Below, piece by piece: positions 25,316-48,866 of a stretch of DNA of 64,000 bases. Source of the DNA: Acidobacteriota bacterium (GTDB lineage Bacteria > Acidobacteriota > UBA6911); contig OY761556.1 of assembly GCA_963664705.1 (NCBI GenBank), positions 4,832,001 to 4,896,000 on the forward strand. Direction: 5' to 3'. Each line of letters opens with the position of its first letter. The stretch's first letter is position 1. The notes beneath the pieces are model-generated. The model searched no databases. It was not told the DNA's origin and was given only the letters and a program-made list of their open reading frames with translations. The translations under genes were made by a program, and so were the position numbers.

Positions 25316-25537
25316 CTGGGAGCGCCGCCGTCCGGCGGCATCAGCGCCCGGCAAGCAGCCACGCCCCTTGCCGGCGAGACGCCTGATGCCGCATGTGATT
25401 TGTTCTGAGCCCTGCGACGCGAGTGAAGCACCAGAGGCCCGGGGGGCCGAAAGCGAGTAGTCAGGGGTTCGCTGCGCTTCACTCCTGGCTGCTTTCTGAT
25501 CGCTCCTCCGGGGCTGGCGAGACGCGGACGCTCCCGG
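25316..25537. repeat. Second, internally deleted copy of the palindromic element
   Basis: Starts ctgggagcgccgccgtcc; 25381-25500 matches the reverse complement of 10078-10150 and 9903-9957. Confidence 0.75.
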
Positions 25538-27572
25538 TGTCCCGCGCGATGAGCGCGGCTCCGAGAGCACCGATGATCTGGGGATTATCCGACATTTCCA
25601 GGCGCGCACCCAGGGCACGCTCGATGGCGCTGACCACGCCGGTATTTTTGGCAACGCCGCCGCTCATCGCAAACTTGCCCTGACGCCCCACTCTTTCCAG
25701 CAAAGCCGCCGTGCGTGCGGCAATGGCGTCGCACACGCCGCGCGCAATTTCCGTCACCGGCGTTCCTTCGGCGATGAGCGACACGACTTCGCTCTCCGCA
25801 AATACGGTACACATCGAGGATATGGAGGCCGATTTCCCGGCTGCAAGGGCATGGGGCCCCAGATCGTCGATGTCGATTTCGAGCGTGCGGGCCATCATCT
25901 CCAGAAAGCGACCGGTGCCAGCTGCGCATTTATCATTCATTGCGAAAGCCCTTACCTGGCCGTCATCCTCAATGGCAATCACTTTTGTATCCTGCCCGCC
26001 GATATCAATGATTGTATGAACGCCTCTGGCCAAATGTGCCACCCCGCGGGCATGGCAGGTGATTTCCGTGACCTGCTTGTCTGCAAAATCCACGACGCCA
26101 CGGCCATAGCCGGTGGCTACACATTGAGCAATCTTCCCGTCTAATCCCTGATCCGTGAAAATCAACTGACGCAGTTTTGCGACAGATTTGCGGCTGCTGG
26201 CCCCGGTCAGGATCACGGTGTCGAAAATGATTTCTCCCCGGCTGTTGATGATGACAGCCTTGGCGGAAAGCGATCCGATATCGATGCCCAGATAGAGGTG
26301 CTCATTATTCACCATCCCAGTATTCACCACCTTCTTTCCATCCATCAGCTCCACAAAACCCTGCAATCGCGTCAGCGTCTGGCCTTTTGAATAATTTCGA
26401 CTATCCACGCAATCGCCATCGAGATCCAAAAAGGGAATCTTCATCGCCTTGAGCGCGTCGGCAATCGGCCGTACGCCACCGCACCCCTGGCGGCATCCCA
26501 GGTGCGAATAATGCAGTACTCCATCCAGCTGATAATCCCGCACCATCTTCTCGACAATCCGAACGCGGTTACTCACCGGGCCGAGATTGGGATTTTGCAG
26601 CATTTTGCGCGCGAGGCTCCTCATGGGCTGGCTCGCATCGAGCGGATCCCAGAATACCTGGGAGAATTCCTCCGTTACCACACGGATACCCATTGTTGTC
26701 TCGATCATTGGAATGAAATTGTCGGGGAAATAGGGATAAGCAAGCAGCCATGCGATACGGAATTTCTCTTCATCCGGATTCTCAGTCTTCCCGCACTCCA
26801 CTTCCTTGAGCAAATCCCGATAGCATTCGGCGAAGGATGGAGTTCCCATCATGAGCACGGACTGAAATGCCAGCGAGAATGCGGTTCTGCCGTAAAGAAG
26901 GCAAGGCCTGCTGCGGCGGAGTTCCAGCAGTCGCAGCATCATATCGCGGGTCTGGTTGCTGCAGCCAAAAACTCTCTCCCAATCCCGCATCGCTGCGCGG
27001 CGGCCGGTCAGTTCAACCAGTTTGTCTTCCACCTCTTCCAGTTGGGCGGCAAGGTAATCCACCGAGGCAGGGCTGCAATCGCCGGGAGTGTCGAGCAGCC
27101 TGTAGGCAGCTCCTGTCCGCGCTGCCAGCTCCTCGAGAGCCTTGTTTTGACCATCACAGAGATGGGAGGTGGCAATGATCAGATCGAATTCGGGCAAAAC
27201 TCCTGAAAGCCCGGCCCCCAGAGTAGCCCGGTGAAAGGAGCAACCATCGCGGCTGAATCCCAGGCGCTCGGCATACTCCAGGGTCCGTCTGGCATACCCC
27301 GCCGCCGCAATGGTTGCCGCAAGGTTTTCCGTATACATCGGCGAAGTACCGTAGACATGAAGCAGTTCAGCGGGAACCAAAAAGCCCGAAAGGACATTTG
27401 CGGTGCCTCGATGCCGGTAAATATCCAACAGCATGCGTGCATTCAGAAGATTAATGCGCTGTCGAGCCGGCAGCGTCGCTCCCGATCCGGGGCGGTTCTT
27501 CAGGATGTATCTCGCCAAAAGGCCGCGAATGATCAGGCGCTGAAGCAGACCCTTCGCACGATCGAGGCTCAT
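25479..27572 (-). CDS. 2-hydroxyacyl-CoA dehydratase subunit fused to its ATP-dependent activator (HgdC/FldI-like)
   Basis: N-terminal FSRDGCS, SHLCDG, GCRQ, LDGDCVD; C-terminal GIDIGSLSAK, ATGYGR, EITCH, DIGGQDTK, MNDKCAAGTGRFLE, SMCTVFAESE. Confidence 0.92.
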   Translation of the reverse strand: MSLDRAKGLLQRLIIRGLLARYILKNRPGSGATLPARQRINLLNARMLLDIYRHRGTANVLSGFLVPAELLHVYGTSPMYTENLAATIAAAGYARRTLEYAERLGFSRDGCSFHRATLGAGLSGVLPEFDLIIATSHLCDGQNKALEELAARTGAAYRLLDTPGDCSPASVDYLAAQLEEVEDKLVELTGRRAAMRDWERVFGCSNQTRDMMLRLLELRRSRPCLLYGRTAFSLAFQSVLMMGTPSFAECYRDLLKEVECGKTENPDEEKFRIAWLLAYPYFPDNFIPMIETTMGIRVVTEEFSQVFWDPLDASQPMRSLARKMLQNPNLGPVSNRVRIVEKMVRDYQLDGVLHYSHLGCRQGCGGVRPIADALKAMKIPFLDLDGDCVDSRNYSKGQTLTRLQGFVELMDGKKVVNTGMVNNEHLYLGIDIGSLSAKAVIINSRGEIIFDTVILTGASSRKSVAKLRQLIFTDQGLDGKIAQCVATGYGRGVVDFADKQVTEITCHARGVAHLARGVHTIIDIGGQDTKVIAIEDDGQVRAFAMNDKCAAGTGRFLEMMARTLEIDIDDLGPHALAAGKSASISSMCTVFAESEVVSLIAEGTPVTEIARGVCDAIAARTAALLERVGRQGKFAMSGGVAKNTGVVSAIERALGARLEMSDNPQIIGALGAALIARDTGSVRVSPAPEERSESSQE

Positions 27573-28675
27573 CTTCGGTTCCCCAGCAGTTCCGCAAACG
27601 CTTCGATACGCGTCCGCATTTGACCCAAAGTGCCGTCGAGACTGTCCCGCTCAATATGAAGGAAAGGAATCCCTCGATCCTGGGCCGTCTTTGCGAGACG
27701 GGGAAGATCCGATTGCACAAGATCGCAAAATTTGAGAGATAGAAAAATGATGCCTTTGACTTCGAATTCGCCGGCAAGATCGATGAGGTTGCCGGTTCGC
27801 GTCAGCGCTCCCTTCATTCGCGCGCATGCCCTGCGACGCAGATAGCGCCGGGCAATCCCTCGCAAAGGATCCAGGGTCGTGTCGACCAGGCCGTCAAAGT
27901 GCCGTTCCCCGGTGCACAGGTCATCACCTGCAACCCGAACGCCACAACTCTCAATCAACTCGTGCATCTCCCTCCCGATCACCGCACAACCGCAAAGGAG
28001 CACACCTGGCACTTTGGATTCATCCCGCTCGGCCGGCACGCGCGATGTCAGGAAGCGCCGGGCTTCCGTGTTGAATCGACGTTTGTCTGCTTGCATGTAG
28101 CAGCGGACAATGTCCGCAAAATCAGCGCTCGCCAGCGAAGCTCCCGGTAATCTGCGCAGCTCGGCGATTCTGCACATCAACCGGCGGGATTCATTCATGG
28201 TTTCGACTGCATCTCGAATGTCGTCCGGATGGATGGCATGCCCGGATTGCTCTTCCAGAATTCCGACAAATTCACGATAGCGAGCCTCCAGATAATCTTC
28301 GGCAATGGCATCCTGCCTCCGCGGACAATCAAGCCTGTAAAGGACAGGGATACTGGAATATCTCTCCCAGGCATCCGCCAATCGCCGCATGGCATCACAG
28401 GAATTGACAAAAACCATTCCTCTCAGATTATCTATCCCGCCCGCCAGTCCTACCTCCAGAGTCGCTCGTGTATAGGGACACAGATTGGCGGGAAGGTGTG
28501 CTTCATTCCCTGCCGTATTGGCTTCAATGCGATAGGGGGTATAGCCGGCAGCCAGGATGAATTCCTCGGGCGTATACGAGCAAAGCCATCCCACCAGGAG
28601 ATTCGCCGGATCGGGACGGCAATTCTCGAACTGGAAAGGCCTATTCATCCGCGAAGTCTCCATCCTGGGTCTCAT
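27569..28675 (-). CDS. 2-hydroxyacyl-CoA dehydratase subunit (HgdB/FldC-like)
   Basis: GWLCSYTPEE, NLCPY, NSCDAMRR, DDLCTGER, KFCD, GQMRTRIEAFAE; 4-nt overlap with the downstream gene. Confidence 0.9.
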   Translation of the reverse strand: MRPRMETSRMNRPFQFENCRPDPANLLVGWLCSYTPEEFILAAGYTPYRIEANTAGNEAHLPANLCPYTRATLEVGLAGGIDNLRGMVFVNSCDAMRRLADAWERYSSIPVLYRLDCPRRQDAIAEDYLEARYREFVGILEEQSGHAIHPDDIRDAVETMNESRRLMCRIAELRRLPGASLASADFADIVRCYMQADKRRFNTEARRFLTSRVPAERDESKVPGVLLCGCAVIGREMHELIESCGVRVAGDDLCTGERHFDGLVDTTLDPLRGIARRYLRRRACARMKGALTRTGNLIDLAGEFEVKGIIFLSLKFCDLVQSDLPRLAKTAQDRGIPFLHIERDSLDGTLGQMRTRIEAFAELLGNRR

Positions 28676-28783: not shown

Positions 28784-30067
28784 TCAATCCATCAGCGCCT
28801 GATAAACCATGGTGATGAATTCATTATAAAAAACCCGATCATCCGGAAATTTCTGCGTCAGGAATATTGCAACGATTCCTTTTTCAGGATCGATGATGAG
28901 ATGTGTAGAAGCGGCTCCGGACCAACCGAACTCCCCTTTGGAACCAAGATTGCCGCGACGAACCGGATCAACGAGCACGGAGACTCCAAGCCCATAGCCG
29001 GTCCCTGTGTTGAGGCTGGAATCCCCCATCCCCATCCACACTCCATCAGGAAGATGATTGGAACTCATCAGCCGGACAGTCCCCGGAGCCAGCAGGCGGG
29101 CACCATCAAGCTGACCGCCATTCGCCAGCATCTGTGCAAACCGCAGATAGTCCCGTGCACTGGAGGTGAGGCTCGAGCCTCCTCCGACTCCTTTATAGGA
29201 ACTGGTAGCCGGCTTGTCGGAAGCAGCGAGCTTCCCATCCTTGACGCCATAGCTTGTTGTCAGACGGGAAATATCCAGCGCAGGCACGCCCAATGTGCTG
29301 TCCTTCATATCGAGCAGCTTGAAGATGCGCGAACTCACGAACGCGTCGAACTTCATTCCGGAAAGCCTTTCGACCAGCGCTGCCTGCAAATCATGCGATA
29401 CGCTATACACCCAGCGCGTGCCCGGCTGATATAGCAATGGGATCTTCGCAAGTCTGGATACCATCTCCTGCAGGCTGCCCTGCGTCACCTTGGCATCCTG
29501 ATACATTTTGTCGACGGGTGTTTGACCAAACCCGTAGCCAAAACCCGCGGTATGCCGAAAAATATCGCGCACCGTGGGTTTGCGCTTTGGCGGTTCGACT
29601 TTCATCTGGTCCCCGCTGCCTGAAACATAAACCTGCAAATCCTTAAACTCAGGGAAGTATTTATCCAGCGGGTCGTCAAGCTGGAACTTGCCTTCTTCAA
29701 AGAGCATGAGAAGGGCTGTGCTGGTCACAGGTTTTGTCATGGAATACATGCGGAACAGGCTGTCGGTTTTCATAGGCGTGCCCGCCTCCAGATCCGCCTT
29801 TCCGTAGGCATCGAAATGAACAATCTTGCCGTGGCGTGCGATCAGCGTAATCACGCCTGCGGTACTGCCCTGATCGACATAGCCGTGCATCCTGGCGTTG
29901 AGCCGGACAAGGCGCTCGGCTGAAAAGCTCTCCTTCTCAGGCGCCACGCTTGATATCTCTGCGGCATTTACCGTCTGAAAGGCAAGAATGCCAACTAATC
30001 CGAGCGCAACGACAAGATGGAATCCGCTTGAAACAGCTTTGAAGAAATTACTCTTCCGGTCTCGCAT
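28784..30067 (-). CDS. Serine hydrolase, beta-lactamase/EstB (family VIII esterase)-like
   Basis: SxxK (YSMTK), RHTAG, LLYQPGTRWVYS, FGWSGAAST; start at ATG 30067 with GGAGGA RBS. Confidence 0.9.
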   Translation of the reverse strand: MRDRKSNFFKAVSSGFHLVVALGLVGILAFQTVNAAEISSVAPEKESFSAERLVRLNARMHGYVDQGSTAGVITLIARHGKIVHFDAYGKADLEAGTPMKTDSLFRMYSMTKPVTSTALLMLFEEGKFQLDDPLDKYFPEFKDLQVYVSGSGDQMKVEPPKRKPTVRDIFRHTAGFGYGFGQTPVDKMYQDAKVTQGSLQEMVSRLAKIPLLYQPGTRWVYSVSHDLQAALVERLSGMKFDAFVSSRIFKLLDMKDSTLGVPALDISRLTTSYGVKDGKLAASDKPATSSYKGVGGGSSLTSSARDYLRFAQMLANGGQLDGARLLAPGTVRLMSSNHLPDGVWMGMGDSSLNTGTGYGLGVSVLVDPVRRGNLGSKGEFGWSGAASTHLIIDPEKGIVAIFLTQKFPDDRVFYNEFITMVYQALMD

Positions 30068-30296
30068 GACTTCCTCCAGGGGATGTGTCATTTGGATTGA
30101 TAATAGAGAAATTGAATTTTCTATCATAAGCCAGCCTCTGAACCGGTAAAAACGAATAACCGCATCTGTGCTGGATAGTTTGCCGGTGCCGCATTGCTTG
30201 ATCGAAGCGAAGGCTTTGGAGTATAAGATCTGGAAAATCATGCAATTCAAATCGACCGCAGTATTACGTAACCAGACGGAAGCAAGGAGGCGTTTG

Positions 30297-31895
30297 ATGA
30301 AGCATCCCATGATGCCGGCTCACTGTTACATTTTGTTGGCAAGTTTAGTGCTCCTCTCCATTCCCGCGTCAGCCCAGCAGCCTTGCGCCGGCCTGGCGTC
30401 CGTTAGAATTCCGAACGTCACCATTACGTCCGCCAAAGACATGAGCCCGGATTGGGAAATACCGGCCACCGGGGGAATGTTCGCAACGCCTCCCGGGCAG
30501 AAGGTCCCGGTGCCGTTCTGTCGTGTTGAAGCCTATTCTGCTCCAACGAGCGACTCCCACATCGGCTTTGAAGTATGGCTCCCCAGGACACCAGGCTGGA
30601 ACGGGAAGTTTCTCGCCGTAGGCAATCCAGGATTCATCGGAGGGATTGCACGCGGCGCAATGTCCGGTATCGTGCAAAAAGGATATGTCGCGGCATCGAC
30701 CGATACCGGGCATACCGATGACGGCTACGATTGGGCAAAGGGGCATCCGGAAAAACTCGTGGACTGGGGATACCGTGCCGTTCATGAAACGGCCGTGGCG
30801 ACGAAGCAACTGATCCAAAGTTATTACGGCAAACCGGTTCAATACTCCTATTGGAATAGCTGCCACAATGGCGGTAACCAGGGACTAAACGAGGCACAGC
30901 GATACCCTGCGGACTTCAACGGCATTGTCGCCGGAGATCCGGCTTATTACGTATCCCGTTTGCAAGCCGGCTCACTGTATATCGGATGGGTTTCGCTCAA
31001 GGACGGAGTGAAGGCGCCGGGATACATACCTCCCGGCAAGTATCCGGCACTTCACAAAGCAGCGATGGCTGCCTGCGACGCCAAAGATGGGCTTGCAGAC
31101 GGCATCATTGAGGATCCGCCGCGCTGCGGCTTCGATCCCAGGAGCATCCAATGTCCGGAAGGCACGGATACCCAGTCCTGCCTCACTGCCGCCCAGGTCG
31201 AAACAGCAAGGAAGATCTACACTGGAGCCAGGTTCAACGATGGTTCAGCGCTATATAGCGGCTATGAACCGGGAAGCGAATTGGGTTGGGCGATGATGGC
31301 CGCCGGCCCCGACCCACTCAGCATTAATGCCAGTTATTTTTCGAGTATGGTTTTTGAGAATCCGAAATGGGATTTTCGCACATTCGATGTCGACCGGGAT
31401 ACGCGCCTGGCCGAAACCCGCACCGGCAAAGCCATCGATGCTTTCAACCCGGACCTAAAACCGTTCAGGAAAAATGGCGGGAAATTGATTATCTATCAAT
31501 CATGGAATGAGACCGTGGTACCGCCGCGGACGATTACGGACTATTACCGAAGCGTGGAAAAAGCCATGGGCGGCCCGGTACAAGCACAGGATTTCGCCCG
31601 GCTCTTCATGGCTCCAGGTCACAGTGGATGCCCGGGGTTCAGTAACGCTGAGGATTTCAATACTCTGAAAGCACTCGAACAGTGGGTTGAGAATGGCGTC
31701 GCTCCCGAGAAGATTGTTCTGACCCACAGAGAACAGGCGAAATTTGGGGAACAGGGCAAGGCGCTGCGCACTCGTCCGGTTTGTGCCTACCCCAAGGTGG
31801 CCAAATATAACGGCCAGGGCGATCCGGATAGCGCTGCCAGTTTTAGCTGTATTGCGCCAGGTAAAGAGGTAGTCTTCCCACCATCTTTGCCCTAA
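30297..31895 (+). CDS. Tannase/feruloyl esterase-fold protein with non-canonical active site
   Basis: FCRV, WNGKFL, STDTGH, RYPADFNGIVAG, RPVCAYP; nucleophile elbow reads SCHNGG; start at ATG 30297 with AGGAGG RBS. Confidence 0.88.
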   Translation: MKHPMMPAHCYILLASLVLLSIPASAQQPCAGLASVRIPNVTITSAKDMSPDWEIPATGGMFATPPGQKVPVPFCRVEAYSAPTSDSHIGFEVWLPRTPGWNGKFLAVGNPGFIGGIARGAMSGIVQKGYVAASTDTGHTDDGYDWAKGHPEKLVDWGYRAVHETAVATKQLIQSYYGKPVQYSYWNSCHNGGNQGLNEAQRYPADFNGIVAGDPAYYVSRLQAGSLYIGWVSLKDGVKAPGYIPPGKYPALHKAAMAACDAKDGLADGIIEDPPRCGFDPRSIQCPEGTDTQSCLTAAQVETARKIYTGARFNDGSALYSGYEPGSELGWAMMAAGPDPLSINASYFSSMVFENPKWDFRTFDVDRDTRLAETRTGKAIDAFNPDLKPFRKNGGKLIIYQSWNETVVPPRTITDYYRSVEKAMGGPVQAQDFARLFMAPGHSGCPGFSNAEDFNTLKALEQWVENGVAPEKIVLTHREQAKFGEQGKALRTRPVCAYPKVAKYNGQGDPDSAASFSCIAPGKEVVFPPSLP

Positions 31896-31948: not shown

Positions 31949-32860
31949 ATGACTGTAATGCACAGCCTCTACCGCGAACCGAGTATCATCAGAATCGATG
32001 AGAGCACATGCGAACACTGCGGCCAGTGCGCAAGCATCTGCGCCGGGGATGTTCTGGTGATGGAGAATGGCCATGTCCGAGTCAGCAACGACAGCCCATT
32101 CGGCTGCATCGCCTGCGGCCACTGCATGATGGTTTGCCCGGTGGGGAGCATCACGGTGACAGGACGTGGGCTCAGCCCAGAGGATCTGCTGACGATGCCT
32201 CCCAAGGAATCATGCGCCACAGCCGATCAAATCTTTGCGCTAATGAAAGCTCGCCGCAGTGTTCGACGCTTTCAGCCGCGTGAAGTGGAACCGGAAATAC
32301 TCAACCGCATTGTCGAAATGGCCTCCTCTGCCCCCATGGGCATTCCGCCCTGGGACGTGGGCTGCATTATCGTCCAGGGGCGCGACAAGGTTCAGGAACT
32401 TGCGACAGAGGTCGTTAAGGGCTACGAACAGATTTTAAAGATATTCAAGCCATGGCTGCTTGCGGTGATGCGTCCGTTCGTGGGCCGGATAATGTATGAA
32501 CAGCTTCTCAATTTCGTTCGACCATTGGCCCGGTCCTATATCGACAGCCATCGCCAAGGTCACGACGCGTTATTCTATGACGCACCGGCAGTTTTGGTTT
32601 TCCATCATTCGCCATACGCCGAAGCCACCGACGCTGCCATTGCCTGTACCTATGCCATGCTGGCAGCCGAGTCCCTTGGTCTGGGCAATACGATGATCGG
32701 GGGAGCCCCGCCTATTATCAAACGCAATAAGAGCCTGTGTGCCCGGCTGGGCATTCCGGCCGGCAACACGCCGTCTATTTCATTGATTGTCGGCTATCCG
32801 GCCACGCACTTCAGACAATCCGTCAAACGCCGCTTTTCGCACGTCAACCGGATTGACTGA
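31949..32860 (+). CDS. Nitroreductase with N-terminal 2x[4Fe-4S] ferredoxin domain
   Basis: CEHCGQCASIC, CIACGHCMMVCP, RRSVRRF, LAAESLGLG. Confidence 0.92.
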   Translation: MTVMHSLYREPSIIRIDESTCEHCGQCASICAGDVLVMENGHVRVSNDSPFGCIACGHCMMVCPVGSITVTGRGLSPEDLLTMPPKESCATADQIFALMKARRSVRRFQPREVEPEILNRIVEMASSAPMGIPPWDVGCIIVQGRDKVQELATEVVKGYEQILKIFKPWLLAVMRPFVGRIMYEQLLNFVRPLARSYIDSHRQGHDALFYDAPAVLVFHHSPYAEATDAAIACTYAMLAAESLGLGNTMIGGAPPIIKRNKSLCARLGIPAGNTPSISLIVGYPATHFRQSVKRRFSHVNRID

Positions 32861-32953: not shown

Positions 32954-33808
32954 ATGTATCCCGTGAAAAAGTTGAAAGGACTTGTCCGCCTGGTACGCCT
33001 GGAGCTTCCCTTCTCCGCCGGAGTCTGCGTCGTCATGGGACAATTATTCGCGCTGGGTGGGTTTGCCTCCATCCGCAACACGGCTTGCGCGTTTCTGTCC
33101 ATCTTTTCTATTGCAGCGTCCATACTCGTGTTGAACGATTACTTCGATGTCGAAACCGACCGGATCAATGCGCCGCACCGTCCCATCCCTTCCGGCATTG
33201 TGACGAAATCGGAAGCACTCTCGTTTTCCGTACTGCTTGTGGTTGCCGGACTGCTGCTCAGTGTTTTTCTTGGTACCAGCGCTCTTGCCTGCTCATTTGC
33301 CCTGCTGCTAATCGGTTTTCTCTATAATCGCAAATTCAAGCAAAGCGGATTGCCGGGAAATCTGATGGTCAGCGTCTCCGTCGGAATGACCTTTATCTAT
33401 GGCGGCGTATCGGTGGGAGTGCCTTTCGACAAGACCGTATGGCTATTTGCGGGCATTGCCGCGTTGGTCGACCTGGGAGAAGAGATCGCGGCAGATGCGA
33501 TGGATATGGCTGGAGATCGGCTTATCCAGTCGCGGTCACTGGCATTGCGATATGGAAGGGATGTTGCCCTTCGCGTCAGCGGCGGTCTCTTTGCCATTGT
33601 CATCGGGCTGACCTCTGTTCCTTTCCTTTTGGGATGGTTTCCCCTTCCCTATGCGGCGCCGATCGCGGTAATGGACGCCGTGATTGCCGGCTCAACGCTG
33701 CGTCTGCTCAGGTCCGAAAATCATGAAGGGCGAATTTATGTCCGACAGCTATACCTTGGCGCAACCGGCGGACTGCTGCTGTTTTTGCTGATGAGGCTGT
33801 TTCTGTGA
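32954..33808 (+). CDS. UbiA-family prenyltransferase (DGGGP synthase-like)
   Basis: NDYFDVETDRINAPHRPIPSG, GLPGNLMVS, EEIAADAMDMAGD; multi-pass TM. Confidence 0.85.
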   Translation: MYPVKKLKGLVRLVRLELPFSAGVCVVMGQLFALGGFASIRNTACAFLSIFSIAASILVLNDYFDVETDRINAPHRPIPSGIVTKSEALSFSVLLVVAGLLLSVFLGTSALACSFALLLIGFLYNRKFKQSGLPGNLMVSVSVGMTFIYGGVSVGVPFDKTVWLFAGIAALVDLGEEIAADAMDMAGDRLIQSRSLALRYGRDVALRVSGGLFAIVIGLTSVPFLLGWFPLPYAAPIAVMDAVIAGSTLRLLRSENHEGRIYVRQLYLGATGGLLLFLLMRLFL

Positions 33809-37586: not shown

Positions 37587-39638
37587 TCAACGCAGCACGT
37601 TGCTTTCCTCCGCCTGCCGGATGAGCAGTTCGCCGTCCTCAGGCAGCAGGAACCGCTGTTTTACCAGGCCCCCGACCGCTTTCTTCACCGATTCGACATA
37701 GCCCGCATGATTTGAATATCGCTCCTCGATGGACAGGCGCGGATCCCCGGAGGCCTGACGCTCAGTCTTCGACCTGGCAAACGGAACGAAGCCGCCCGTA
37801 AATCCGCAGGCGCGTCCCCGGTAGAATCCTCCCTGAGTAACGTTCCAGCCCAAATAGGTACCCAGCGGCGCCTGATGCAGCGGGGATGCGATTCCGCTTG
37901 TTTCATTGCCGTCAGCATCCACCTTCGGCACAAGCAACGGCAGAATGCGTTGAACGATCGGCGGCTGAATTGTCAGTACTCCGGATAGATCGCGGCGGAT
38001 AAATTCCGGGCCAAAATCATAATCAAGAAATGAGTTGATGAGATGATCGGGCAGGGGCCGGCCGGGAATGGCGGGAAAGCCCAGGCTCCGGGAGTCGGGC
38101 CGCACCAGCTGCCCTTTGTCCAACCGGGGATAGACGCTTTGCGGCGGCTCTGCATTTTTAGTCACCCAATCGGTCAATGCAGCGATCAAGGCCCGCATCG
38201 TTTCGCTTTGCGGATTTGGGTTCTGCGGCAAATCGCAGGAGGGCGCCACGGCAGGAACCTCAGTGCTGAATCCACCACGCCCCCCGCCGTGAGTTGTGCC
38301 CGGAAAATAATAACGGCGCACATTGGCCGGAAGCGGAATATCCCTATCGGCGGCAGTGCCGATCAGGTTGGGTGACATCCGCAAACCCCAGAACTCCGCA
38401 GAACCGAACGTTTCCATAATCTTCGGACAGGTCTTTGTTGCGCGGCAACGGTCCAGCATGCTTCCGCTTTTCTGCCCGCGCATCCTATCCGCATAGGATC
38501 CCCACCAGAGTTGCGGTTCACTGCCCGCCTCATACATGTTGGCCGCGCCGCCTGGAGTGGCAAACCGGATATTCAGCGCCAGTTGCCGGCCGGCAATGTG
38601 CGGATTGGCGCCATCCCACACAATTTGTCCCGCTTCATCCTGGTTGAAACCAAGATGAAGGAAACTTTTGATGAAATTCCCCGACTGTGAAACGCCTTGC
38701 GCGATCACATGCCGCATCTTCCCTGCAACGGGATTAGCCAGATTATTCGAATCCATCGCAGAGCGACGGAAGAAGGAAACGATGTCGCGCGTTGCCGCGA
38801 AACCGATACCCAGCACAAGCGGATCTTTTGCCGTATATCTCAGTTCGTATAGATAGGCCGGATCGAATCCGTCCTTGAGGCAAACTTTGCCGGCATCGGG
38901 TTTTCCCGGAAACGGCATTTTGCTGCAATCCGCAAAAGCCCACTCCATTGGAGCGATCGGAATAACGGCGCTTTCCTCGCCAGCCTGTTTGGTGAGTGTT
39001 GCCCTATTGGTATTCATGTCCGCGGTTTCATGCGCAACGGGCAGCGGCATTGTTCCGGTACCTGCAGGCATGTTATTGAAGCGCGCCCATGCGGGTCCGG
39101 TGATACTGGAACCGTCCGCTTTCCGGGCGACCGGAACGGTAATTGTTTCGCTGCCGGGGCGCCCGGCCAGGTCGCCCTGCCAGCCGCTGTGCAAAATCAC
39201 GTATCCGCGTTTGAGAAAGAAATCATCGCCCGATTCACCTGCGGTGCCGAACGACATTGTTGAAATGCGGCTGCCGCGATTAGGTACGGCATAAAGGAGC
39301 ACGCCATTGGCCTTCGTCATGTCTACCGGCTTGACCAATGTATAGGTGGCAGAATATTCGACATGCCCGCGAACATTGCGCGGCGCAAAACCGAGATCGG
39401 TAATAATAGCATTGTGAACATCTTTGGGATCCAGCTCGCCATAGGCGCGTCCGCTGAGAATCTCATACGGACCCACGCTTCCAAAGCTCTTCCCATCAAA
39501 TGCAGGCGACTGCCGCTGTTCGATCTCAATCCGAATAATCCGAGCCTCAACTTTTGCGGCGCACAAAATAGCGATAATCAAAGAAAACCACATTGCGGAG
39601 GGTCGCTGAGCCAATAATGATTTGCGCGATGGATTCAT
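37587..39638 (-). CDS. Secreted alpha/beta hydrolase domain protein
   Basis: FGSVGPYE, VPNRG, SGWQGD, GVSQSG nucleophile elbow, GTTHG, VDADGNE, DPRLSIEERY; start at ATG 39638 inferred. Confidence 0.8.
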   Translation of the reverse strand: MNPSRKSLLAQRPSAMWFSLIIAILCAAKVEARIIRIEIEQRQSPAFDGKSFGSVGPYEILSGRAYGELDPKDVHNAIITDLGFAPRNVRGHVEYSATYTLVKPVDMTKANGVLLYAVPNRGSRISTMSFGTAGESGDDFFLKRGYVILHSGWQGDLAGRPGSETITVPVARKADGSSITGPAWARFNNMPAGTGTMPLPVAHETADMNTNRATLTKQAGEESAVIPIAPMEWAFADCSKMPFPGKPDAGKVCLKDGFDPAYLYELRYTAKDPLVLGIGFAATRDIVSFFRRSAMDSNNLANPVAGKMRHVIAQGVSQSGNFIKSFLHLGFNQDEAGQIVWDGANPHIAGRQLALNIRFATPGGAANMYEAGSEPQLWWGSYADRMRGQKSGSMLDRCRATKTCPKIMETFGSAEFWGLRMSPNLIGTAADRDIPLPANVRRYYFPGTTHGGGRGGFSTEVPAVAPSCDLPQNPNPQSETMRALIAALTDWVTKNAEPPQSVYPRLDKGQLVRPDSRSLGFPAIPGRPLPDHLINSFLDYDFGPEFIRRDLSGVLTIQPPIVQRILPLLVPKVDADGNETSGIASPLHQAPLGTYLGWNVTQGGFYRGRACGFTGGFVPFARSKTERQASGDPRLSIEERYSNHAGYVESVKKAVGGLVKQRFLLPEDGELLIRQAEESNVLR

Positions 39639-39764
39639 TCGCTGTTTACTCCAGAAATAGAAGCGCCACTGTAGGAGAAGATTCCCGATCTGAGCCCTCA
39701 ACACTATCGTAGAATGGCTGGGAGCATGTTCGAGAATTGGGATAGGATATACCTCATTCTGAGA

Positions 39765-41384
39765 CTATTTGACGTTCTTGTTTGAAGGCAACGCACATAC
39801 AAAACTGGCAGCGTCGTCCGTATTTCCGCTTCCTTTGTACTTTGCAACCTGAGGATATGGACACAACGGACGCGTTCGATCCACTTTGCCGGCCGCTGAA
39901 TGGGAGGCAATAATCTGATCGGGCGCCGTATCCCTTTCCACCCACTGCTCCAGAGAGGCAAGCGCATCAAAGCTATTCGGTCCGGAACCGCCGCCGCAAT
40001 GAGCCATCCCGGGCGCCATAAAGAGTCGCACGAATTCATCCGACTTCCTGACGCCTCCGTTTTTCTTTTGAACGCTTTCAAAATACTGAACCGTGTTTCT
40101 TGGAGCAATATTCTGGTCCAGCCACCCGTGGTACATAATCATTTTGCCGCCGCGCTGTGCAAAGAGAGCTAGATCCGGATTGGTTGAGTCCAGGACTGGA
40201 CCAAGTTTCCGGGATGCATCCTCCATGAACGCAAAGTTCTTTGAGTCGGAGAAGGAAAAATTCCTCCAGTTCCAATTCGGGTCCTTCATCACCATAAATT
40301 TGAAATAGGAAATAGGCGTATTAAAAGGATTGTTGATGTGCCCCGGCCACTGAGTTTCACTGCTTTTCTCATAGCCATACCAGAAGTTTCTCCCGGTAGA
40401 AGGATCCTTAGCCCCTTCGTAAATTTTCCTTACTGAATCCGCTTGAGCCGCGGTCAGGCAGGTTGGACGATCCGCCCCGGAACACTGGATCCTGGCGGGA
40501 TCGAAATTGCACTGCCTGGGATCCTCGATAACGCCATCCTTGATGCCATCTGACTCATCACATGCTTCGATCGCGGCATTGGTGATCAACGACAGTTTTT
40601 CGTTGGGGATGCGGCTGGCTTCATCTCTGTGGGTAACCCAGGCCGCATAAAGCTCCCCGGGCCAAAGGCGTGTTGGGAAATTTGCGGGTGCGCCGGCCAC
40701 GATACCGTTGTAATCGGCTGGGTATCGTTGAGCCTCGGAGAGCGCCTGACCGCCTCCACCCGAGCAACCGGTGAAGTACGAGTAGCGCGGATCCTGATTG
40801 TAGTACGCCTTGATGACTGTCTTCGCGGCGATCGCGGTCATGTGTATGGAACGCGATGCAAAATCAATGCGCAGTTTTTCATCAAGCGCCCAGGAGTCAT
40901 CCCCCATTTTGTCAACATGGCCGGTATCCGTGCTGGCCGTAGCATAGCCTCGCGCAATTGCCTGCATCATGGCATCGTAGTTGATGAAACCGGCAAGGCC
41001 ACCGTTTCCGACTCCATTAAATTTTCCATTCCATTTCCGTTCACCGGATAACAGTGGCAGCCAAATCTCAAAATTGATTGAAGGTTGCACCTTACCGGAT
41101 ACACGGCAAAAAGCAGGCATGGCATTTCCTGTGGCTGCCGAGCCTCGACCGATATCCGGCTTCCCTCCGAAAGGAGGCTGTCCGCCGCCGAGAGCAATTC
41201 CTCTGCCTGGAGGAATAAATTCGCCTGCCGACACCGATTGGGCGGCAACGATGTTTATTTCGGGAATTTTGAGGTTTTTCAGGCCCTCACAAGAGCCCGT
41301 CGTCACCTGACCGTATGCCGAGGCAATCGAAAGAATCATGGCAATGCTCAGGAATGCAGCGGAGCCAACTCTATAAGCTTTCAT
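39765..41384 (-). CDS. Tannase/feruloyl esterase family hydrolase (canonical)
   Basis: Signal peptide; GCSGGG, HGWLD, PGMAHC (CS-D-HC motif); start at ATG 41384. Confidence 0.92.
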   Translation of the reverse strand: MKAYRVGSAAFLSIAMILSIASAYGQVTTGSCEGLKNLKIPEINIVAAQSVSAGEFIPPGRGIALGGGQPPFGGKPDIGRGSAATGNAMPAFCRVSGKVQPSINFEIWLPLLSGERKWNGKFNGVGNGGLAGFINYDAMMQAIARGYATASTDTGHVDKMGDDSWALDEKLRIDFASRSIHMTAIAAKTVIKAYYNQDPRYSYFTGCSGGGGQALSEAQRYPADYNGIVAGAPANFPTRLWPGELYAAWVTHRDEASRIPNEKLSLITNAAIEACDESDGIKDGVIEDPRQCNFDPARIQCSGADRPTCLTAAQADSVRKIYEGAKDPSTGRNFWYGYEKSSETQWPGHINNPFNTPISYFKFMVMKDPNWNWRNFSFSDSKNFAFMEDASRKLGPVLDSTNPDLALFAQRGGKMIMYHGWLDQNIAPRNTVQYFESVQKKNGGVRKSDEFVRLFMAPGMAHCGGGSGPNSFDALASLEQWVERDTAPDQIIASHSAAGKVDRTRPLCPYPQVAKYKGSGNTDDAASFVCALPSNKNVK

Positions 41385-44048: not shown

Positions 44049-45581
44049 ATGGGTAAATATCTGGTGCGGATCCTGTTGGTAGCAGCTCTTGGCGTCATTC
44101 TCTTTGTTACGCCTATAGCCGCAGCAACTTGTGAGAGTGTTGCATCACTTGCATTGCCGGATGGAAAGATCACCTCGGCAACCCTGATCGCCGCAGGTTC
44201 GTTCACGCCTCCTGGCGGCGGGCTTATGATGGGCGGACCGGGTGGCTCCTCGGCCTTTAAATCGGCTCCCGCATTCTGCCGAGTCACTGCCACGCTTACG
44301 CCAACACCCGATTCAGACATCAAGATAGAGGTCTGGATGCCGGCGGATAACTGGAATAGCAAACTTGTCGGCATCGGCAACGGAGTATGGGCCGGCAGCA
44401 TCAGCTATTCGGCCCTGGCAGAGCCTCTGGCAAAGGGCTACGCCACCGTCGCAACCGATACCGGCCACGTTGGCACCGGAATGGATGCAAAATGGGCCGT
44501 CGGTCACAAGGAAAAGCTGATTGATAATGGATATCGCGCCATTCATGAAATGACGGTGAAAGCCAAGGCCTTCATCAAAGCATACTACGGGCGCAAGGAA
44601 CAGCGGTCGCTTTGGGTCAGCTGCTCCACTGGAGGTCGACAAGGGCTCATGGAAGCCTATCGCTACCCGGAAGACTATACCGGCATCTCTTCGATGGCTC
44701 CGGCGAATCACTGGTCAAGGCTGATGATTGGATCATTATGGTCCGGCTATGTCACATCAAAAGATGATGCTCACAGAGTTACACTGGCAAAAATCAATGC
44801 TGTGCATAAAGCCTTCGTCAATCAATGCGATGAGAAAGATGGGCTGAAGGATGGAATTATCAGTGACCCTGAACGCTGCCGTTTCGATCCCGAAATCATC
44901 CAATGTAAAGAAGGAGACGGCAGCGACTGCCTGACCGCTCCACAGGTTGAAGCCATGCGACAGGTTTACGCCGGCGCAAAGAATCCGCGCACCGGAGAAC
45001 AGATTCTTGCCGGTTTTCAGCCCGGAAGTGAACAGCAATTGATGGCGCTGATTGGAGGAAAGGAGCCATTCCCGGCTGCCTACTCCTATTTCCGCGATGT
45101 TGTATTCAACAACCCCCAGTGGGATTACAAATCTTTTGACTATGACAGGGACCTCGCAGCAGCCTACAAAATCGGAAGTGAAATCCTCGACGTCCCGAGC
45201 GACGGGTTATCCAAATTTTTTAAAAATGGCGGGAAGCTCCTGCTTTCGCACGGCTGGTCGGACGGCCTGATTCCGGCAGGCGGGACTGCGGTTTTCTACA
45301 AATCGATGATTGCAAAGATGGATCCAAAGGCCGCCGATTCAGCCCGGCTATTTATGTTTCCGGGGATGGGTCACTGCGGTGGTGGCGAAGCCCCCGCGGT
45401 AGCAGATATGCTTACTGTGATCGATCAGTGGGTGGAAACGGGGAAAGCTCCGGAGCGTATCATTGCAACCAATCCGCCCAATCAAAAGCCGATGTCGCGC
45501 CCGATTTGCCCTTATCCGCAGACTTCAAAATACAAGGGCTCGGGAAGCACAGAGGATGCGGCCAATTTCGAGTGCAAATAG
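44049..45581 (+). CDS. Tannase/feruloyl esterase family hydrolase (canonical)
   Basis: Signal peptide; SCSTGG, HGWSD, PGMGHC. Confidence 0.92.
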   Translation: MGKYLVRILLVAALGVILFVTPIAAATCESVASLALPDGKITSATLIAAGSFTPPGGGLMMGGPGGSSAFKSAPAFCRVTATLTPTPDSDIKIEVWMPADNWNSKLVGIGNGVWAGSISYSALAEPLAKGYATVATDTGHVGTGMDAKWAVGHKEKLIDNGYRAIHEMTVKAKAFIKAYYGRKEQRSLWVSCSTGGRQGLMEAYRYPEDYTGISSMAPANHWSRLMIGSLWSGYVTSKDDAHRVTLAKINAVHKAFVNQCDEKDGLKDGIISDPERCRFDPEIIQCKEGDGSDCLTAPQVEAMRQVYAGAKNPRTGEQILAGFQPGSEQQLMALIGGKEPFPAAYSYFRDVVFNNPQWDYKSFDYDRDLAAAYKIGSEILDVPSDGLSKFFKNGGKLLLSHGWSDGLIPAGGTAVFYKSMIAKMDPKAADSARLFMFPGMGHCGGGEAPAVADMLTVIDQWVETGKAPERIIATNPPNQKPMSRPICPYPQTSKYKGSGSTEDAANFECK

Positions 45582-47762: not shown

Positions 47763-48866
47763 CTATTGAATGCTCTGTATCTGCTCTGACATCCCTTGTT
47801 CGAAATTGCTCCATCCAGAGTTCATTCCATAGGGGCATCGTTGCAGAACAGCTTCAATACGACGGATTTTTCCTTTCTCTATCTTGAAAAGCTCCGCCTG
47901 CTGCCAGGTCCACGGCTCCGTTGGGCCGGCCACGACATCGCGACCGTCGGGCGTCTTGAAATAGCGTGTCTTGCCCGCGCCATGATCAAAGAAATTGAAG
48001 GTGAATACAATTCCGCGTTCGCGATCCACCGCGGCGAAGCGCCGGTCACGAATTCGGGAAACAAAGTGCATGAGACCGGACTCAAACTGCTTTTTGCACC
48101 CCCACGCGGAGGAATAGACTTTTTCCTTAACCGCATCCGGCATCTTTTCTCCCGGCTTCAGCGGAACATTGGTTGCTCTATTCCCATTTTCAATACGATC
48201 GCAGTCATCGGTGAAGGGATAATGCCCTTTGCCGTCATTCCGCTGCAATCCGGAGAAGTAATAATTGGCGGTTTTGATCATTTCCTCCCGCGAAGCCCGC
48301 TCCGCTTCAGGAATCGATTCCATATACACGGCGTGAGGCGCACCCATTTTCTCAATGCTCTCGGCGGCAGATGGCGGACGTTTGCGGGTCGGATCGAGTA
48401 GATTGCTTTCCGGTCGGATCACGAGCTGCTCCGCTTCGGCAATCACCCCCTTGGATATCTTCAGGCGAAGCGCAACCACCACGGGATTGCCTTCTCCTGG
48501 CGCGCCGGATTCCTCGCGGGCTGTACCGATAAATGCAACCTGCTGGGTCTCAATATCCGGAACATAAAATTTGTAAGTCCCTTTTCCAACCATGCTCGCC
48601 CATAGCCCCTCGTTTCCGAACTGCAATTGCACTCCATTCTCCGTAAACCGGACACTATCGGCAAAAAGGGCTTTGTCGGGTTCATGCTTGAGCATTGCAT
48701 CCATATATTTGTCGACGTAGCCTTCCAGGCAGGCGCGGTCACAAGCGCTTGGAGGAACAGCTTTCTGCGCAACTGCTGTTTCGGGAGAGGCGCTATCAGA
48801 AGCAGGTTTTTGACAGGCGACAACCATGAACGAAAACGCCATAACGGCGAGGCATTTCTTCCACAT
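47763..48866 (-). CDS. Hypothetical lipoprotein
   Basis: GGAGGAG RBS; lipobox VVAC; CDRACL, RFTENG, CDRIENG; apparently two related halves. Confidence 0.75.
   Translation of the reverse strand: MWKKCLAVMAFSFMVVACQKPASDSASPETAVAQKAVPPSACDRACLEGYVDKYMDAMLKHEPDKALFADSVRFTENGVQLQFGNEGLWASMVGKGTYKFYVPDIETQQVAFIGTAREESGAPGEGNPVVVALRLKISKGVIAEAEQLVIRPESNLLDPTRKRPPSAAESIEKMGAPHAVYMESIPEAERASREEMIKTANYYFSGLQRNDGKGHYPFTDDCDRIENGNRATNVPLKPGEKMPDAVKEKVYSSAWGCKKQFESGLMHFVSRIRDRRFAAVDRERGIVFTFNFFDHGAGKTRYFKTPDGRDVVAGPTEPWTWQQAELFKIEKGKIRRIEAVLQRCPYGMNSGWSNFEQGMSEQIQSIQ

Follow-up and report, generated by a model that had tools for sequence, protein, structure and literature searches.

We analysed a window of 64,000 nucleotides from an Acidobacteriota genome (GenBank assembly GCA_963664705.1, contig OY761556.1, positions 4,832,001 to 4,896,000 of the forward strand). 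It holds P0001, a gene of the tannase/feruloyl-esterase family (PF07519) with a histidine at the nucleophile elbow, together with two paralogs that keep the canonical Ser-Asp-His motifs. The gene belongs to a conserved and apparently undescribed branch of the family in which an invariant His replaces the catalytic Ser. The features of the locus are collected in Table 1. An earlier note on this DNA, made from its letters alone, had described an intact open reading frame (ORF), ribosome-binding site and cysteine pair. All of these are present: the ORF spans 532 residues, AGGAGG lies 6 nt upstream, and both Cys189 and Cys445 are conserved. The leader described there is signal-peptide-like by inspection, with an N-terminal hydrophobic peak (Kyte-Doolittle 11-mer 2.95) and an A-S-A end before Q, and hydropathy reveals no membrane-like stretch downstream of it (peak 19-mer 0.92). 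In 111 of 121 N-type proteins the mature start is QQ/QP/QR-x-C, mostly preceded by A-x-A.

Conservation was measured in 233 relatives, obtained from two similarity searches (the best 120 matches of each, no motif selection, overlaps counted once) with a sampled pairwise identity of 48-95%. Alignment with the window paralogs confirms that all three triad motifs are rewired: SCHNGG stands against GCSGGG/SCSTGG, QSWNE against HGWLD/HGWSD and PGHSGC against PGMAHC/PGMGHC. The elbow codons read AGC TGC CAC AAT GGC GGT, with the His190 codon CAC at 30864-30866. In the structural model the strand ends at residue 189 and the helix begins at 191, putting His190 at the elbow. The triad of the feruloyl esterase FoFaeC is Ser201-Asp412-His452, with oxyanion residues Gly123/Thr202 (PMC13618265). 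A phmmer alignment read against that numbering equates H190 with Ser201, E405 with Asp412, G444 with His452, C189/C445 with Cys200/Cys453 and G112/N191 with Gly123/Thr202. By this alignment, P0001 lacks the Ser, the Asp and the His of a serine esterase. The base His had been suggested to be either lost or shifted by two residues, and the first alternative stands: position 444 is Gly in P0001 and, across the relatives, Met in 133, Gly in 93, Ile in 4 and Ala, Asn and His in one each. The shift does not hold, as His442, two residues ahead of the base position, occurs in only 4/233 and is incidental. The single His444 belongs to P0472, a chimeric record that shares 85% identity with His-type proteins over its first 417 residues but has a C-terminus best matching Ser-type ones, by assembly artefact or recombination. 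P0472, which has His at the elbow as well as at the base position, was for this reason rejected as an evolutionary intermediate.

Table 1 Features of the His-elbow tannase-fold gene and of the surrounding window (counts refer to the 233 relatives).
Feature	Position	Strand	Remarks
His-elbow tannase-fold gene (P0001)	30297..31895	+	532 aa, uninterrupted ORF; Pfam PF07519 E 6e-106
Shine-Dalgarno AGGAGG	30285..30290	+	spacing to ATG 6 nt
Signal-peptide-like leader, residues 1-26	30297..30374	+	hydropathy; A-S-A end, then QQPC
Oxyanion loop G109-N-P111-G112-F113	30621..30635	+	P111 232/233, G112 230/233, F113 229/233
Nucleophile elbow S188-C189-H190-N191-G-G	30858..30875	+	S188, C189, H190 each 233/233; position 191 N 122, E 111
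Asn194 (nucleophile+4)	30876..30878	+	232/233; likely structural H-bond to Ala216 carbonyl
D214-P215-A216, position IV just after strand beta6	30936..30944	+	D 229/233, position 213 variable; DSSP strand 209-213
Gln223 + Ser226, aligned to FoFaeC Gln234/Ser237	30963..30974	+	Q 233/233; S 220 + T 13; gap-free block
Lid Asp261/Asp264/Asp268, family Ca-site motif	31077..31100	+	each 233/233
QSWNE, former HGxxD acid motif	31497..31511	+	position 405: E 152, S 79, G 1, gap 1; never Asp
PGHSGC, former base loop	31614..31631	+	catalytic His gone (Gly444), Cys445 retained; C445 233/233
Canonical Ser-Asp-His paralog, control	39765..41384	-	GCSGGG/HGWLD/PGMAHC set vs SCSTGG set, motif alignment
Second canonical paralog (SCSTGG / HGWSD / PGMGHC)	44049..45581	+	motif alignment
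Divergent beta-lactamase-family serine hydrolase	28784-30067	-	flanks His-elbow gene
4Fe-4S-nitroreductase fusion	31949-32860	+	flanks His-elbow gene on other side
UbiA prenyltransferase	32954-33808	+	closest models PRK12884/geranylgeranylglycerol-phosphate transferase
Abhydrolase_10 protein	37587-39704	-	

The loss of the triad leaves the fold intact. P0001 matches the Pfam Tannase profile at 355.6 bits against a cut-off of 29.8, and its AlphaFold2 model, built on a 116-sequence alignment (predicted local distance difference test, pLDDT, 91.9), predicts an alpha/beta hydrolase core with a large helical lid. The model resembles fungal feruloyl esterases (template modelling score 0.87-0.90; Z 43.3-43.8 at a root-mean-square deviation of 2.3-2.5 Å; for 6g21, Z 43.8 and 2.5 Å over 483 residues) and MHETase (Z about 35). 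All 12 significant matches from sequence searches of the PDB are tannase-family proteins. By modelled fold and by descent, P0001 is therefore a member of the tannase/feruloyl-esterase family. NCBIfam assigned no family to the three His-type proteins searched, and the ESM Atlas returned generic tannase clusters only. With AoFaeB (3WMT), AoFaeB-2 (6G21) and FoFaeC (6FAT, 8BHH, 9HUN) the protein shares the two-domain fold, the disulfide Cys pair (Cys189 and Cys445, predicted, each 233/233), the oxyanion Gly and the Ca-motif Asp residues, which we presume to be calcium ligands. The clade differs from these feruloyl esterases, at 29-32% identity, in Ser201 to His, His452 to Met/Gly, Asp412 to Glu/Ser and Gly122 to Pro, and in a gained Asp at position IV. 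MHETase of Ideonella sakaiensis, of the same family and fold, requires Ser225-Asp492-His528 and is inactive as S225A (PMC7568301); its carboxylate anchor Arg411 is Ser/Thr in the His-type clade.

The substitution at the elbow is not peculiar to the window sequence. S188, C189, H190, A216, Q223 and C445 are found in all 233 relatives. As a control, the best 120 relatives of a canonical paralog keep Ser in 120/120, Asp in 120/120 and His in 118/120 (2 gaps). An elbow His is carried by just two of the top 150 representatives of clusters made at 50% identity, P0243 and the fragment P0325. In a tree of 78 rows (25 His-type, 44 other representatives and 9 host paralogs; the partial L034 left out) the His-type rows lie on one side of a single branch with a support of 100 (quick IQ-TREE), and the same split holds in FastTree with 50 motif columns removed (supports are SH-like or from the Shimodaira-Hasegawa-like approximate likelihood ratio test, SH-aLRT). 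On these trees the elbow-His proteins are a monophyletic clade. Across 80 coding sequences His190 is encoded by CAC in 59 and CAT in 21, and the median ratio of nonsynonymous to synonymous substitution rates (dN/dS, NG86) is 0.136 over the 649 unsaturated of 3160 pairs. In loci from the host's relatives the His-type genes have a ratio of 0.13 (59 of 300 pairs), and the Ser-type genes one of 0.105 (31 of 378 pairs). The His-type genes are thus under purifying selection. The single clade, a dN/dS of 0.13-0.14 and a His190 present throughout bear out the earlier proposal of a coordinated, selected change rather than decay.

The clade comes in two forms, SCHEGG (mostly with Glu405 and Met444) and SCHNGG, and the loss of Glu405 maps to one branch within the latter. 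Both forms lie in tandem in a Gammaproteobacteria genome (L033:4295-7494), with a canonical paralog about 4 kb off, which suggests that the two are not redundant. The elbow-His motif was found in 26/30 genomes of the host genus and, in an even phylum draw, in only 4/401 genomes, all four from this genus. A scan of the sequence collection with two patterns, one containing the motif, gave matches in Acidobacteriota (including Ca. Acidiferrales), Desulfatiglans and other Desulfobacterota, Gammaproteobacteria and a few others, and a metagenome scan with a single-protein query gave 5 loci, 2 of them close.

The host genome has 13 tannase-fold genes, two of them with an elbow His. The second copy (G000:C1:438530-440125; L001:8531-10081, minus strand) reads SCHNGS / GSWNS / PGSTGC, is 57% identical to P0001, and lies between two xanthine-dehydrogenase-like genes, near an AFOR gene with an Fe-S subunit. 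The elbow Ser is also absent from other tannase-fold lineages: in P0274 the elbow residue is Cys and the base residue Leu, and in five further representatives (P0295, P0312, P0318, P0328 and P0374) the elbow residue is Gly. Serine catalysis seems to have been abandoned on more than one occasion within the family.

A candidate partner for His190, missed by the earlier note, is Asp214 at position IV, conserved in 229/233 relatives and likelier than the residues proposed there. Position IV makes a backbone contact with the elbow residue in nearly all alpha/beta-hydrolase families and supplies the catalytic acid in four, including pancreatic lipase (PMC7034887). The spacing of 24 residues from His190 to Asp214 and the D-P-A motif are those of lipase S152/D176-P177-A178 (PMC7034887 Table 1), a position-IV Asp that P0001 thus has in common with these 'group B' hydrolases. 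Sequence and model strand place it at the C-terminal end of beta6, the group B acid position. In pancreatic lipase, which belongs to a different family, this Asp works with a beta8 His in a Ser-His-Asp triad, whereas the His-type clade has neither the Ser nor the beta8 His. Asn194 is likely to be structural, because an analogous nucleophile+4 Asn is listed as bonding the IV+2 carbonyl (the N155-O/A179 contact, PMC7034887 Table 1).

The remainder of the aromatic pocket is retained, in agreement with the aromatic binding considered in the earlier note. By alignment Gly112 corresponds to FoFaeC Gly123 and its oxyanion NH, and the neighbouring Pro111 is specific to the clade; 91% of the family have Gly at this position, and MHETase has Ser131, where changes tune substrate fit (PMC7568301). 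Gln223 and Ser226 align with FoFaeC Gln234/Ser237, which in docking contact the 4-hydroxyl of hydroxycinnamates (PMC5967792). Pocket positions are conserved at >=97% in 15/21 cases, compared with 24% of all positions (161 proteins), while the abandoned triad positions reach 35-81%. We compared the clade with 143 Ser-type representative rows and looked for polar residues at >=97% in the clade yet rare in these rows. Six resulted, namely H190 (0% of Ser-type rows), N194 (1%), S188 (7%), Q223 (14%), D214 (15%) and D315 (16%), and five of them are at the active site. An acid is retained in every protein: Glu191 and Glu405 are both present in the 4 that have Gly214, and Asp214 is present in each of the 80 without Glu405.

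We then considered the genomic context in 79 loci with flanks of up to 6 kb. No conserved operon or partner gene emerged, with no neighbour family above 14 of the 79 loci, and the beta-lactamase-family and nitroreductase flanks of the window gene do not recur among them. Linkage to transporters or sensors is sparse in these loci, many of them on short contigs (ABC-ATPase motif 2, His kinase cluster 4, MFS cluster 4). Alcohol or aldehyde oxidoreductases are neighbours in 33/79 loci: AFOR in 11, pyrroloquinoline quinone (PQQ) dehydrogenase in 11, aldo-keto reductase with Fe-S in 10, xanthine-dehydrogenase-like in 8 and zinc alcohol dehydrogenase in 6. In the immediate flanks, where any Pfam match was found in 23 of 52 and 24 of 50 flank ORFs, xanthine-dehydrogenase/AFOR genes adjoin 4/30 His-type vs 0/28 Ser-type loci of the host's relatives. 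MFS genes adjoin 5/30 vs 1/28 loci of the genus, which are kin and not independent. The context points to an exported protein that works by itself in the metabolism of aromatics and aldehydes but names no substrate, and the absence of a conserved partner gene across several phyla suits a self-sufficient enzyme.

We tentatively favour, at a little under an even chance, an exported serine-free enzyme in which His190 and Asp214, as a relocated acid/base pair, would act on a hydroxy-aromatic compound with a carbonyl or carboxyl group and form no covalent intermediate; its His-Asp contact, ligand pose and turnover are what we infer. The substrate is likely a 4-hydroxy-aromatic. The elbow imidazole would turn into the space vacated by the beta8 His (now Met/Gly) and hydrogen-bond Asp214; Glu405 would be a second acid, inherited from the ancestor and dispensable. 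The lid pocket would take up the aromatic ring, with Gln223/Ser226 contacting the para-hydroxyl and the oxyanion hole receiving the oxygen of the carbonyl or carboxyl group. His190 could then shift a proton with no covalent intermediate, for a lyase, decarboxylase or isomerase step or for the activation of water. An aldehyde as product or substrate would fit the oxidoreductase neighbours, a weak link. Oxygenase chemistry is unlikely for the copies in anaerobes, because several are in genomes of Desulfatiglans and other Desulfobacterota, which are anaerobes. More broadly, we consider it marginally probable that the triad has collapsed into a pair with a catalytic elbow His, its base shifted there from the beta8 loop and its acid from beta7 to beta6, with His190-Asp214 acting as acid/base pair or, most boldly, His190 as covalent nucleophile, and that the protein serves a so far unrecognised extracytoplasmic step of plant-phenolic breakdown in uncultured Acidobacteriota and Desulfobacterota.

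Serine-independent catalysis by His or His-Asp on this fold has precedents in the dioxygenase HOD, with its His on the loop after beta8, and the decarboxylase MKS1 (PMC10548524). Such Ser-independent enzymes, hydroxynitrile lyases included, employ His or His-Asp as a general base and use no covalent nucleophile (PMC10548524; PMC11878206 section 2.7), and P0001 may work in a similar way. HOD, MKS1 and the hydroxynitrile lyases have no elbow His, and we saw no lid or sequence kinship with the tannases. In MKS1 and the hydroxynitrile lyases, too, the His is on the beta8 loop.

Several observations weigh against the acid/base enzyme. In the position-IV enzymes known, the acid pairs with the beta8 His and not with an elbow side chain, and the His190-Asp214 contact is a predicted one. 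Asp214 is not diagnostic, since 21/143 Ser-type rows have it too and the triad is intact in 19 of these, and the reciprocal loss of D214 and E405 amounts to about two evolutionary events. The equivalence of Gln223/Ser226 is drawn from an alignment at 29% identity and from docking, not from a crystal contact. The oxidoreductase neighbours are largely shared synteny among kin. Their proximity is cheap because such families abound in the host genome, which alone has 23 AFOR-like and 20 xanthine-dehydrogenase-like matches, also flanking Ser-type paralogs, and none of these oxidoreductases lies within 6 kb of the window gene. A few His-type copies are broken, one by a split ORF (L005) and one by a single internal TGA (G012:C160:2630-3943). 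Finally, the conservation of His190, Gln223 and Ser226 would also be expected of a binding site, so that catalyst and binder are not separable by sequence.

This last point leads to the strongest rival, which we regard as possible but unlikely: a non-catalytic periplasmic binder, or pseudoenzyme, in which a cationic His190 (via Asp214) and the two oxyanion NH groups would clamp the carboxylate of an aromatic acid. The ligand would be the free acid released by the Ser-type paralogs, held for buffering, delivery or sensing. Benzoate is indeed held in FoFaeC by the oxyanion hole and the elbow Ser (PMC13618265), two of the three triad positions of the clade drift freely with the pocket residues retained, and the adjacent MFS genes point the same way. 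On the other hand, no transporter or sensor partner is conserved over the 79 loci from several phyla. MFS importers normally operate without binding proteins, and the elbow of pseudo-hydrolases is mostly occupied by Gly, Ala, Asn, Asp or Arg, not by an invariant His; both count against a binder. The gibberellin receptor GID1 keeps the elbow Ser, has a protein partner and, having lost the base His, binds a carboxylate in its oxyanion hole. Receptors of this kind offer a model for a binder but differ in having a partner, none being conserved for the His-type gene.

A clearly less probable possibility is His190 as a covalent nucleophile, forming an acyl- or phospho-imidazole with activated substrates (aryl or depside esters, phosphoesters), its ring oriented by Asp214. 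The His does stand at the nucleophile position itself with the oxyanion hole retained, and Pro111 beside the oxyanion Gly could reshape that hole. However, compared with a Ser oxygen, the imidazole nitrogen is farther from the backbone, and the intermediate would therefore be expected to miss the oxyanion hole. Nor has the clade acquired a cationic residue to accommodate a phosphoryl group, the nucleophile+4 Arg of 75/143 Ser-type rows having become Asn.

The earlier note's metal site of His190, His442 and Glu405 was rejected, since its ligands are not conserved: His442 occurs in 4/233, Glu405 in 152/233 (Ser in 79), and position 444 is mostly Met or Gly. An alternative set of His190/Asp214/Glu191/Glu405 draws on the co-occurrence of H190, E191, D214 and E405 in the SCHEGG subclade (H-E-D-E-M in 102/233), but 79 H-N-D-S-G proteins retain only His190 and Asp214 of the candidate ligands, leaving a metal site of either composition very improbable. 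Slightly more doubtful still is a serine hydrolase with a shifted nucleophile in a Ser188-His190-Asp214 triad. Ser188 is invariant in the clade and present in 7% of Ser-type rows, but it lies inside strand beta5 of the model, at the first-Gly position of GxSxG, which normally faces helix C. It is also found in the canonical window paralog with SCSTGG, and all 80 of its codons are AGY, which fits one change from Gly to Ser. Neither decay nor sequencing error, for which only the broken copies might speak, is tenable: both are ruled out for practical purposes by the invariant His190, the low dN/dS and the 26/30 genus genomes. Contigs of two sequencing runs match the stretch without differences but may be its source, and a third run is patchy, with no piece across the His codon, so that none of these is independent evidence; among the runs listed, none was an RNA data set with the sequence.

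An alpha/beta-hydrolase survey lists, in its section 2.7, an elbow Ser, Asp, Cys or no nucleophile, with the His on the beta8 loop, and no elbow His (PMC11878206 section 2.7). Searches of the open-access literature, in which the motif search was swamped by unrelated words and whose scope left out subscription journals and supplements, returned no description of a His-elbow tannase clade. If correct, a selected clade with an elbow His and its acid on beta6 would add a new kind of active site to a fold that is among the best studied, and to the MHETase/feruloyl-esterase scaffold on which plastics and lignocellulose engineering draws. The esterase triad is missing from 233 protein clusters or more, many of them labelled 'feruloyl esterase' by their sources. 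The protein is expected to be cheap to test, being soluble and of about 55 kDa, and the canonical paralogs of the host genome can serve as controls.

Other features of the loci can be recorded more briefly. A promoter and terminator scan of the stretch gave shuffle-level counts (4 vs 2.9 and 7 vs 5.0). The Desulfatiglans-group loci (L022, L025-L032, L035) are syntenic, with AFOR and its Fe-S subunit, an SGL lactonase and/or a multiheme cytochrome, a twin-arginine-like aldo-keto reductase with Fe-S, the His-type tannase and often a thioredoxin-like gene. Upstream of P0001, the minus strand of the window (25479-28675) codes for subunits of 2-hydroxyacyl-CoA dehydratase, and one of these carries a fused BadF/BcrA activator ATPase. 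Beside its 13 tannase-fold genes the host genome has expansions of about 29 DUF8021-like and 35 UGSC-like matches, and a gene of the DUF8021-like group with a leader-like N-terminus lies in the window itself at 47763-48866 (minus strand).

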